From Mustelus asterias (Eukaryota), in NCBI RefSeq assembly GCF_964213995.1, contig NC_135813.1, positions 101,680,001 to 101,744,000 of the forward strand: a stretch of 64,000 bases of DNA, read 5' to 3'. Shown piece by piece: positions 224-56,180 of the stretch. The stretch's first letter is position 1, and every line of letters begins with the position of its first letter. Below the pieces are notes generated by a model. The model worked only from the letters and a program-made list of their open reading frames with translations. It was not told where the DNA came from and searched no databases. Position numbers and translations under genes: made by a program.

Positions 224-625
224 ATAAGTACCTGGCAGGGGAGAGTCAACGATCAGGCAGGTTGATCTCCCAGGGTGAGACTATCCCATTGCTCTTGGGG
301 GTGTGTTGACACCTACGATGGAAGTTTGCCAAGGCGAGGGTAGAGTAAATTCTCAGGGTAGCCAATGAGGTTAAACCAAGGCTTTACCTGATGCAATTTT
401 TCAAAGCCATCTCGGCCTTCTGGCTGAGATGAAGCATCAGATCAAGCCCGGAAGGGGGTGCAATGCCTCATCCTGTCAGCTTGGATTTTGTTTGATTGAA
501 CCCAAGATGGGATGCAATGTCTTGTCTTGTCAGCTAGGATCTTGTTTGTCCCTCATGTGGGGACCTAATTTGAATTGGCATTTTTGATTAGAAATAAAGT
601 ACTGAAAGCTACCAATAAAAAAAAA
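224..625 (+). mobile_element. U1/U2 snRNA-derived SINE (SINEU-like)
   Basis: 224-319 aligns to U1 nt ~1-97 (ATAAGTACCTGGCAGGGGAGA...). 404-445 resembles the U2 5' end (CTCGGCCTTCTGGCTGAGAT). Two tandem diverged U2 segments start at ~459 and ~513, followed by a stem IIb-like GTCCCTCATGTGGGGAC (548-564) and an Sm-like ATTTTTG (580-586). AATAAA and an A-tract end at 625; possible TSD taagtaat at 202-209 and 629-636. Confidence 0.8.
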
Positions 626-52194: not shown

Positions 52195-55100
52195 TGCAGG
52201 GCTAGTCTGCAGGGAGCGGTCAGAGGGCGGAGCTGAGCATAACTGTGAGTATAAAACTAACTTTGATTGGTGGTTGCAGGTCACATTTGCATAAGTGCAG
52301 TCACTGTGACTGGAAGGTGGTTTGTGGAGGAGCTGCTGTGAAGGGACAGTTAAACCACAAACACTACTTCAGTGTTACCCTCCTTCCCTAACCAAAATAA
52401 AAGTTGGCAGGAGGACCACAAGCAAGGGAGAGGTGAGTTGCAATTTTTTTTTATCCGTATTAGGGCAATTTGGCAGCTAGGGCAGTGGCATGCTCCTCTT
52501 GTCAGATGTGGGCAATTAGGGAGCAATCTAGTCTCCCTGATAACTTTGTCTGCAGGAAGTGTGTCCAGTTGCAGCTCCTCACAGACCACATTGTTCGGTT
52601 GGAACGGCAGGTGGATGCACTGCGGAGCACACAGGAGGCAGAGAGTGTGATAGACACTGGTTACAGGGAGGTTGTCACACCACAGGTTCAGACAGGTAGA
52701 TGGGTGACTGCCAGGAGAGGCAGGCAGGTGGTGCAGGAGTCTCCTGTGCCTATTCCCCTTTCAAACAGGTATATCAATTTGGATGCTGTTGAGGGGGATA
52801 GCCTGTCAGGGGGAGATACCAGCAGCAGCCAGGCCTGAGACACCATAGCTGGTTCCGCTGTGGGACAGGGTCGGGCAAAGAGCAAGCGAGCAGTAGTAAT
52901 AGGGGACTCGCTAGTTAGAGGCACAGACAGGCGTTTCTGTGGCTGCAATCGAGACTCCAGGATGGCGTGTTGCCTCCCTGGTGTCAGGGTCAAGGATGTC
53001 TCTGAGCGATTGCAGGACATTCTTAAGGGGGAGGGTGAGGAACCAGAGGTGGTTGTACATATTGGTACCAACAACATAGGTGGGAAAAGGGATGAGGTCC
53101 TGAAATGTGAATATAGAGAGTTAGGCAGAAGGCTAAAGTGCAGGACCTCGAAGATAGTAATTTCAGGACTACTACCGGTGCCACATGATAGTGAGAGTAG
53201 GAATAGGAGGATTAGGCAGATGAATGCCTGGCTTGAGAGCTGGTGCAGGGGGCAGGGATTTAGATTTTTGGATCATTGGGATCTTTTCTGGGGAAGGGCT
53301 GACCTGTTCAAGAGGGACAGATTACATCTGAACTGGAAGGGGACTAACATCCTGGCGGGGAGATTTGCTCGAGCCACTCGGGAGGGTTTAAACTAGTTTG
53401 GCAGGGGGGTGGGATCCAAAGCAGTAGGGAGACAGAAGAGAAGTTTGAGGACAGCACGGAAGTTAAAGAGAGCACATTAATTAGTAAAGGCAGTGTCAGT
53501 AATCCTAGTACCAGACAGAAGCAAGACAGAGAGCAAGGGAAGTCCAGATTAAACTGCATTTATTTCAATGCAAGAGGTATGACGGGCAAGGCAGATGAAC
53601 TCGGGGCATGGATGGGTACGTGAGACTGGGATATTATAGAAATTACTGAAACATGGCTAAGGGAGGGACAGGACTGGCAGCTTAATGTTCCAGGGTACAG
53701 ATGCTATAGGAAAGATAGAACAGGAGGTAAGAGAGGAGGGGGAGTTGCATTTTTGATTAGGGAAAGCATCACGGCCGTACTGAGAGGGGATATATCCGAG
53801 GGTTCGGCCACTGAGTCTATATGGGTAGAACTGAGAAATAAGAAGGGGGAAATCACTTTGATAGGGTTGTACTATAGGCCTCCAAATAGCCAGCTGGAAG
53901 TTGAGAAGCAAATATGTAAGGAGATTACAGATAGTTCCAAGAAAAATAGGGTGGTAATAGTCAGAGATTTTAATTTTCCCAACATTGACTGGGACAGCCA
54001 TAGTATTAGAGGGTTGGATGGAGAGAAATTTGTTGAGTGTATTCAGGAGGAATTTCTCATTCAGTATGTGGATGGCCCGACTAGAGAGGGGGCAAAACTT
54101 GACCTCCTCTTGGGAAATAAGGAAGGGCAGGTGACAGAAGTGTTAGTGAGGGATCACTTTGGGACCAGTGACCATAATTCTATTAGTTTTAAGATAGCTA
54201 TAGAGAATGATAGGTCTGTCCCAAAAGTTAATATTCTAAATTGGGGCAAGGCCAATTTTGATGGTATCAAGCAGGAACTTTCAAAAGTTAATTGGGGGAG
54301 TCTGTGGGAAGGCAAAGGGACGTCTGGTAAGTGGCATGCTTTCAAAAGTGTGTTAACCAGGGTTCAGGGTAAACACATTCCTCTTAGAGTGAAGGGCAAG
54401 GCTGGCAGAAGTCAGGAACCCTGGATGACTCGGGATATTGAGGCCCTGGTCAAGAAGAGGAAAGAGGCACATGACGTGCATAGGCAGCTGGGATCAAGTG
54501 AATCTCTTGAACAGTATAGGGGGTGTAGGAGTAGAGTTAAGAGAGAAATCAAGAGGGCAAAAAGGGGACACGAAATTGTTTTGGCAGATAAGGCAAAGGA
54601 GAATCCAAAGAGCTTCTACAAATACATAAAGGGCAAAAGAATAACAAGGGAGAGAGTAGGGCCTTTTAAGGATCAACAAGATCATCTATGTGCGGATCCA
54701 CAAGAGATGGGTGAGATCCTAAATGAATATTTCTCATCAGTATTTACTGTTGAGAAAAGCATGGATGTTAGGGAACTTGGGGAATTAAATATTGATGTCT
54801 TGAGGAGTGTACATATTACAGAGAAGGAGGTGCAGGAAGTCTTAAAGCGCATCAAGGTAGATAAATCTCCGGGAGCTGATGAGGTATATCCCAGGACGTT
54901 GTGGGAGGCTAGGGAGGAAATTGCGGGTCCCCTAGCCGAGATATTTGAATCATCGATAGTCACAGGTGAGGTGCCTGAAAATTGGAGAGTGGCAAATGTT
55001 GTGCCTTTGTTTAAAAAGGGCTGCAGGGAAAAACCTGGGAACTACAGGCCAGTGAGCCTCACATCTGTGGTGGATAAATTGTTGGAAGGTAATTTGAGAG

Positions 55101-56180
55101 ACAGGATCTACAGGCATTTAGAGATGCATGGATTGATTAGGGACAGTCAGCATGGCTTTGTGACCAGCCTCAGGGATCAGTGCTGGGCCCACTGTTATTT
55201 GTCATTTATATTAATGATTTGGATGAGAATATAGGGGGCATGGTTAGTAAGTTTGCAGATGACACTAAGATTGGTGGCATGGTGGACAGTGAGGAAGGTT
55301 ATCTCCAATTGCAGCGGGATCTTGATTAATTGGGCCAGTGGGCTGACGAATGGCAGATGGAGTTTAATTTAGACAAATGCGAGGTAATTAATTTTGGTGG
55401 ATTGAACCAGGGCAGGACTTACTCAGTTAATGGTAGGGCGTTGGGGAGAGTTACAGAACAAAGAGATCTCGGGGTACATGTTCATAGCTCCTTGAAAGTG
55501 GAGTCACAGGTGGACAGAGTGGTGAAGAAGGCATTCGGCATGCTTAGTTTCATCGGTCAGAACATTGAATACAGGAGTTGGGACGTCTTGTTGAAGTTGT
55601 GCAAGACATTGGTAAGGCCACACTTGGAATACTGTGTGCAATTCTGGTCACCCTATTATAGAAAGGATATTATTAAACTAGAAAGAGTGCAGAAAAGATT
55701 TACTAGGGTGCTACTGGGACTTGATGGATTGAGTTATAAGGAGAGGCTGAATAGACTGGGACTTTTCTCTCTAGAGCGTAGGAGGCTGAGGGGCGACCTT
55801 ATAGAGGTCTATAAAATAATGAGGGTCATAGACAAGGTAGATAGTCAATATCTTTTCCCAAAGGTAGGGGAGTCTAAAACTAGAGGGCATAGATTTAAGG
55901 TGAGAGGGGAGAGATACAAAAGTGTCCAGAAGGGCAATTCTTTCACACAGAGGGTGGTGAGTGTTTGGAACAAGCTGCCAGAGGTAGTCGTCGAGGTGGG
56001 TAGAATTTTATCTTTTAAAAAGCATTTAGATAGTTACATGGGTACGATGGGTATAGATGGATATGGGCCAAATGCGGGCAATTGGGATTAGCTTAGGGGT
56101 TTTTTAAAAAAAGAAATAAAGGCGATATGGACAAGTTGGGCCAAAGGGCCTGTTTCCATGCTGTAAACCTCTATGACTGG
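52195..56180 (+). mobile_element. Near full-length CR1 (HER1-like) LINE, inactivated
   Basis: ORF1: Zn-finger/coiled coil (CSSCQMW...CRKC...LERQVD) and SGNH esterase (VVIGDSLVRG, VHIGTNN, DRLHLN), with a stop at 52836-52838. ORF2: APE endonuclease (CIYFNARG, ITETWL, LDLLLGN, SDHN) and RT (NYRPVSLTS, FADDTK), with a stop at ~53621 and an internal deletion at ~55162. 3' tail ctgtaaacctctatgact. Confidence 0.96.

Follow-up and report, generated by a model that had tools for sequence, protein, structure and literature searches.

Positions 224-625 of the window (the whole 64,000-nucleotide stretch of Mustelus asterias DNA analyzed here) open like U1 small nuclear RNA (snRNA), continue into U2-like sequence and close with an A-tail, which raises the question of whether this locus is a one-off chimeric pseudogene or a retroposon copy and, if the latter, how it was mobilized and transcribed. 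Here, we describe a dispersed snRNA-derived retroposon family whose U1 and U2 parts are inherited jointly (family A), its U2-headed sister family (family B), and a LINE inserted in U2 genes. At a probability of roughly 0.7, we read 224-625 as a U1/U4/U2 retroposon that was likely copied by a Keno-type LINE and likely transcribed through an snRNA promoter borrowed by a master copy lying within a gene.

Composition of the element at 224-625

The genome's own U1, U2 and U4 genes served as snRNA references, and U5 was compared as a further possible source. The full-length element (plus strand; U1 head, U4 remnant, U2 body, A-tail) is 85.6% identical to a 30-copy family A consensus, indels counted. 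The sequence-only reading had placed a U1-like 5' end exactly at the element start and followed it to about nt 97, in agreement with the match of U1 nt 1-96 at 224-320. The head belongs to a variant-U1 class whose stem-loop I is fully paired, and agrees with the genome's own U1 at 58/77 positions in 224-300 and 21/25 in 296-320. The Rfam check suggested in that reading gave a U1 match at 224-352 (55.5 bits, E 3.3e-12), which lies under the gathering score of 69.5, and in the window no match for the U2 or U4 pieces, both of which were identified against the genome's own genes; on four other copies Rfam gave weak U1/U2 matches only. The head type recurs as a full-length variant U1 (84% identical to U1 over 158 nt) at L274:1501-1660, the source of the window's head type, which has a compensated stem-loop I; no intact gene of this variant type was found. 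Selection on the SINE was considered for the compensated U1 stem-loop I and rejected, the compensation stemming from variant U1.

A stretch of about 85 nt does separate the U1 and U2 parts, as had been proposed, but it is not the unrelated linker it was taken for. It begins with two older U1 remnants at 317-357 (U1 34-51 at 317-334 and variant-U1 15-34 at 338-357), which are short, weak matches: the first has 13/18 identities in the window and 11/14 in the consensus, the second 15/20 and 17/20. U4 nt 23-47, from the 5' stem-loop that we take to be a kink-turn, follows at 358-382 with 22/25 identities in the window and 23/25 in the consensus, scoring 18.4 and 20.6 against maxima of 13.6 and 12.8 in 300 shuffles. 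A short match at 393-402 to the U4 Sm site (U4 ~116-125) has its junction in a simpler family A copy, L271, where U4 23-47 (24/25) is joined directly to U4 118-126 (8/9) with GGC microhomology; the U4 part of family A thereby reads as from an internally deleted U4. Comparison with U5 as a source gave no family A match better than shuffled sequence, which equaled the scores in 45 to 137 of 150 cases, and one match for family B, reached by 2/150 shuffles, which is a T-run.

The U2-derived body bears out the arrangement proposed from the letters alone. Its 5' stem is U2 7-31 (stem-loop I) at 410-434, with 22/25 identities in the window, 24/25 in the consensus and a score of 18.4 against a maximum of 14.2 in 300 shuffles. 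The two tandem diverged U2 segments (437-544) are 54-nt hairpin units at 437-490 and 491-544, alike at 48/58 positions in the family consensus, and U2 21-105 aligns with 502-586 at a score of 69.5, reached by 0/500 shuffles. U2 nt 59-107 at 539-587 (34/49 against the genome's U2) carries the stem IIb hairpin at 548-564 and, starting with ATTTTTG at 580, an Sm-site-like T-run at 580-586. AATAAA (593-598), a terminal hairpin (599-613) and an A-rich tail (614-625) make up a 3' end (593-625) common to the aligned copies. The proposed 8-bp target site duplication (TSD), TAAGTAAT, is present at 202-209, 14 nt from the element start, and at 629-636; its score of 8 is reached by 3.5% of 310 mismatched flank pairs.

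Positions 1695-1801 had been offered as a second, diverged copy. The sequence is related (82% identical to 224-625 over 107 nt), but it is a minus-strand fragment of the U2 part (second hairpin unit plus stem IIb), headless and tailless, ending at consensus nt 356 of 389 with the last ~33 nt and the tail missing. Its flank, from the look of the sequence, we take to be a CR1-like LINE remnant. A CR1-like 148-bp stretch at 698-845 is repeated (92%) at L266:9859-10000, just before the window start, and brackets the SINE. Window positions 53624-56091 contain long CR1-type ORF2 frames of 536 and 253 aa, and the closest named relatives of the CR1 protein are from rays and sharks.

Families A and B

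A first look across the genome gave 4053 family A candidates, 40 of which were scored at 79-100%, and 3811 with another family A copy as query; these are not copy numbers. They uphold the claim of a repeat family over a single pseudogene. In aligned copies the U1 start, all junctions, the diagnostic changes and one 3' end are held in common, and the U1 and U2 parts co-occur, as the earlier reading expected, with their junctions inherited together. The consensus is 389 nt long and non-coding, with T-runs of 5, 4 and 6. The 67 of 75 distinct copies longer than 150 nt average 90% identity to it (84.6-94.8%), and from this divergence family A looks inactive and old. Tail-anchored searching gave 33 pattern matches; 30 of 30 loci among them are the family A SINE and none is a LINE with its exact tail. 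Their 5' truncation varies, with 17/30 reaching at least as far 5' as consensus nt 30 (later inserts split two of these) and the rest shorter. Eleven of the 75 copies start exactly at U1 nt 1, with no common upstream DNA seen, and the heads are of canonical, variant, 11-nt deletion and mixed types. AATAAA or ATTAAA precedes the tail in 40/47 copies not chosen by motif. Abutting TSDs scoring at least 8 are found in 8/75 copies (67/75 are without) against 0/150 null pairs; one copy, L127, has a TSD of ~70 bp. Contigs across the U1-U4-U2 junctions are present in three of four public runs examined (organisms G, H and J; not D), and no cover of family A was found in run X8. Runs X17 and X20 are contigs whose RNA nature is guessed, and they show presence only.

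Family B was first found beside one family A copy, where two related U2-headed elements lie together with a LINE end. It has the U4-U2 body in common with family A at 69-81%, a U2(1-39) head and a different 3' end. A first look gave 2469 candidates, and the 40 best matches are 99-100% identical, by which family B would be a young, active U2-headed branch. TSDs scoring at least 9 flank 14/30 copies (2/90 null), 9/30 heads start at U2 nt 1, and 20 public runs contain part of a family B copy, six of them with at least half its words (three organisms). An older family B copy at L277:1016-1377 has its tail followed by U5 nt 38-115, the single U5-gene case. Near U5 genes, L278:332-378 and L282:959-1010 represent a third element, in which a diverged U2(2-53) head runs into an unrelated continuation common to both loci.

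The family A consensus folds at z -6.5 (60 shuffles) and the window copy at z -2.7. Each 54-nt unit folds as a long hairpin whose pairs are kept between families A and B, which suggests that selection maintained the fold in the master lineage. In an alignment of 12 A and 12 B copies 95.3% of cells are paired, where the cells are not independent and the structure comes from the same alignment; pairs changed on both sides number 8/50 in these copies, which is not above shuffles (65/500). A kink-turn required by selection was also considered and is unsupported, with an intact core in 24/62 family A copies; helix 1 is 79% paired and is eroded in young family B.

A Keno-type LINE in snRNA genes

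LINEs were searched for by the zf-RVT domain, and 150 of 1388 candidates were scored. The LINE at L173:675-6322, in a U2 array, encodes an ORF1 zinc knuckle, an APE endonuclease, a reverse transcriptase (RT) and zf-RVT; it starts with a U2(5-35) head, and its tail runs directly into U2 nt 38-191. A Tx1-type APE endonuclease and insertion at a fixed base of U2 genes are the marks of Keno, and we class it as a Keno-type Tx1 element from its domains and fixed insertion base. A protein search returned one relative (45%), and near-intact copies have open frames of up to 1150 aa. Across 200 kb of U2-array DNA, U2 nt 39 onward stands directly after six LINE tails and two family B tails, and we take this position to be the exact Keno cut position in U2. 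Family B is present in 7/22 zf-RVT loci and in 3/9 further new regions, a count from which 11 other regions were excluded as duplicates of loci already counted.

Two family B copies lie in U2 genes with their upstream DNA. At L234:5550, 600 bp upstream of the copy are 95-99% identical to U2 gene upstream DNA; the copy is internally decayed (92%), and so shows the arrangement and not an active master. At L238, 339 bp match, at 98.5% identity, the 5' flank and first part of a variant U2 that is uninterrupted; the upstream DNA of this variant U2 has no match to that of canonical U2 and may not be a promoter. The family B head ends at most 2 bases from the LINE's insertion site, as expected if the masters are U2 genes interrupted by B. 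Young dispersed family B copies are mostly without a U2 target, and the LINE lies within 1.5 kb in 3/30.

Several arrangements of LINEs and snRNA genes were seen alongside. The L173 region (G000 C24 44.81-44.94 Mb) holds an 8035-bp tandem unit that pairs a U2 gene with a second U2 copy containing a broken Keno-type LINE and is repeated at least 15 times. L237, L238 and L240 (G000 C21 28.05-28.09 Mb) hold tandem 448-bp units of a variant U2 (~90% to U2) that has upstream DNA of its own; the Keno-type LINE inserted there repeatedly and family B once. Several copies in the U2 arrays of L230-L233 carry an extra 16 nt (88-89%), possibly through empty-site duplications at the LINE target. L246-L249 (G000 C8 13.04-13.07 Mb) contain U1 array units in each of which the gene is preceded by a Keno 3' UTR fragment and followed by a piece of U1 (111-147), and L255:660-2713 is a single case of a 5'-truncated Keno-type LINE followed directly by U1 from about nt 37. 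Long palindromes with sub-threshold miRNA-family matches at L184:919-1030 and 2875-2959 are probably MITE-like.

Mobilization, transcription and known systems

Family B and the LINE stand at the same U2 base, and family B stands behind U2 upstream DNA, which points to mobilization by Keno and to a borrowed snRNA promoter. For family B, both appear to be supported by direct genomic evidence. In the mechanism we propose, Pol II would transcribe a family B copy at U2 nt 38/39 from the promoter of the U2 gene, giving an RNA that starts at U2 +1 and whose head ends at the LINE's cut site, and at new sites LINE ORF2 would reverse-transcribe this RNA, beginning in the A-tail. Family A would be an older branch that gained its U1 heads stepwise, by insertion into, or template switching onto, U1 or variant U1, was read from a U1 promoter and was polyadenylated at its own signal. 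The RNA fold would have been under selection in the master lineage, with putative binding of snRNP proteins.

The earlier suggestion of Tx1-type mobilization is supported directly for the sister family, and we extend it to family A, for which we infer a Tx1 partner and a U1 promoter on the grounds that it is homologous to B, ends in a poly(A) tail and has copies starting at U1 +1. For family A itself the genomic links are indirect. Its copies show no U2-site preference (5/75 against a background of 45/1204), Keno-like DNA lies within 1.5 kb of 1/75 copies with no tblastn match at those loci, and their 3' ends resemble the LINE tail weakly, at scores that 2 to 160 of 300 shuffles attain. No family A copy was found across 200 kb of U1-array DNA, and none of 68 5' flanks of family A copies (a set with two duplicates) contains proximal U1 upstream DNA. 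Searching with exact patterns for a master downstream of either a U2 or a U1 promoter gave 0 matches each, the B pattern having missed a head variant.

Some of these results would suit a scheme with the same family and LINE in which family A took its U1 heads by template switching onto U1 RNA and was transcribed by read-through from unrelated host promoters. The absence of copies behind U1 upstream DNA agrees with it, and the several head types suggest repeated exchange with U1 RNAs, as PMC4494074 describes for SINEU-2. Read-through, however, predicts common 5' extensions, which are missing from the 11 copies that begin at U1 nt 1; family B shows the in-gene arrangement directly; and family A is old enough (mean 90% to consensus, 67 copies) that a master in a U1 gene may have been lost. 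We hold this scheme to be rather improbable. Mobilization of family A by a different LINE (another L1/Tx1 branch, RTE, L2 or CR1) seems unlikely. In its favor, target preference and neighboring Keno DNA are lacking, TSDs are few, the 3' end is unlike B's, and with 150 of 1388 zf-RVT candidates scored other Tx1/L1 families may exist unseen, but the poly(A)-type tail and polyadenylation signal are as in the Keno-type LINE, the body is homologous to that of B, whose LINE link is direct, and the 30/30 tail loci hold no LINE with the family A tail.

Common ancestry with crocodilian SINEU, whether ancient or by horizontal movement, would account for the same design of U1/U2 heads, A-tail and Tx1 partners co-clustering with Keno (PMC4494074). 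We consider it quite unlikely, since family A heads match the genome's own U1 at 36/38 and 45/46, which favors acquisition in this lineage, and the text of PMC4494074 gives no U4 part, a Mariner target and no SINEU outside crocodilians. A Pol III SINE, with the U2 stem evolved into an A box and the hairpin units supplying B boxes, has in its favor one loose match resembling an A box (consensus 186) and two resembling B boxes (205 and 259); these boxes lie 185 nt inside an element whose copies begin at snRNA +1, the element has internal T-runs, and young family B has no B-box match. The internal promoter at the 5' end by which tRNA, 5S and 7SL SINEs are recognized is absent, no tRNA was found in the window and Rfam 5S and 7SL gave no match; a Pol III origin is very improbable. 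Plain U1, U2 and U4 pseudogenes do occur in this genome, yet a collection of unrelated chimeric pseudogenes, or a pair of neighboring insertions, does not explain the same junctions and diagnostic changes with one common 3' end across aligned copies, and is refuted by family size, inherited junctions and the 30/30 tail loci, which leave it almost no probability. Borrowing of an snRNA promoter by an in-gene master, with copying by Keno, remains our preferred reading.

A wider picture can be offered only tentatively, as we think it doubtful in its entirety: elasmobranchs would harbor an active, promoterless superfamily built of snRNA that rides the U2-targeting Keno, takes a gene's head and Pol II promoter, and has gathered pieces of U1, U2 and U4 (among them Sm sites and the kink-turn of U4), with its fold selected for a putative snRNP guise. 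If true, no earlier SINE would have had a U4 part, and how SINEU-type elements are transcribed would be answered directly for the first time. Family B in U2 genes predicts transcripts beginning at U2 +1 and continuing into the SINE at nt 39-40, and the 99%-identical family B and near-intact LINE copies make the question of SINEU transcription testable. In sharks and rays, U1/U2 annotation and FISH probing can catch thousands of SINE copies. A 2019 review by the SINEU author, or Repbase, may mention SINEU in sharks, and the chance that a shark SINEU entry already exists is about one in three. A search confined to published papers returned no shark SINEU and no U4-bearing SINE, and the portions of PMC5381603, PMC5753468, PMC7245038, PMC4758252 and PMC5499810 consulted hold no shark SINEU.

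The nearest known systems are described in PMC4494074 and PMC4640811. Keno belongs to the Tx1 clade, has an APE endonuclease and is U2-specific, with hosts among frogs, fish, lancelet and hydra, and together with Utopia is among these nearest systems (PMC4640811, PMC4494074). The L173 LINE resembles it in its APE endonuclease, RT, zf-RVT and U2 nt 39 onward after the tail, the base also used by family B, and differs in having many copies outside U2 genes and a non-autonomous passenger built of snRNA. U6/L1-type template-switch chimeras and snRNA processed pseudogenes likewise fuse an snRNA 5' part to retrotransposed sequence; both are one-off events (PMC4494074), whereas junctions and mutations here are inherited as families. 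SINEU-1, -2 and -3 (Kojima 2015, PMC4494074) are described only from crocodilians, and their author left open by what route they are transcribed, given heads devoid of an internal promoter. Like them, the elements reported here are short (<500 bp), dispersed and non-coding, with a U1- or U2-derived head (U1 1-96 in A, U2 1-39 in B) and snRNA pieces repeatedly added 5', and have a poly(A) tail, 5' truncation, TSDs that are variable or absent (found in some copies here), internal T-runs and no tRNA head. Both kinds have a Tx1 partner with an snRNA-derived head, and a target common with the LINE is seen for family B; for family A no such sharing was seen. In contrast to SINEU, the host is an elasmobranch, a U4-derived module is present, the body is almost wholly snRNA-derived with a duplicated 54-nt hairpin, family B sits at the Keno site in U2 genes where the crocodilian target is Mariner-N4_AMi, and copies stand behind snRNA upstream DNA (PMC4494074). 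The SINEU design is now found in a second vertebrate lineage, with a third snRNA (U4), and the elements are a variant of the SINEU kind: an elasmobranch superfamily with a U4 module and an active U2-headed branch.
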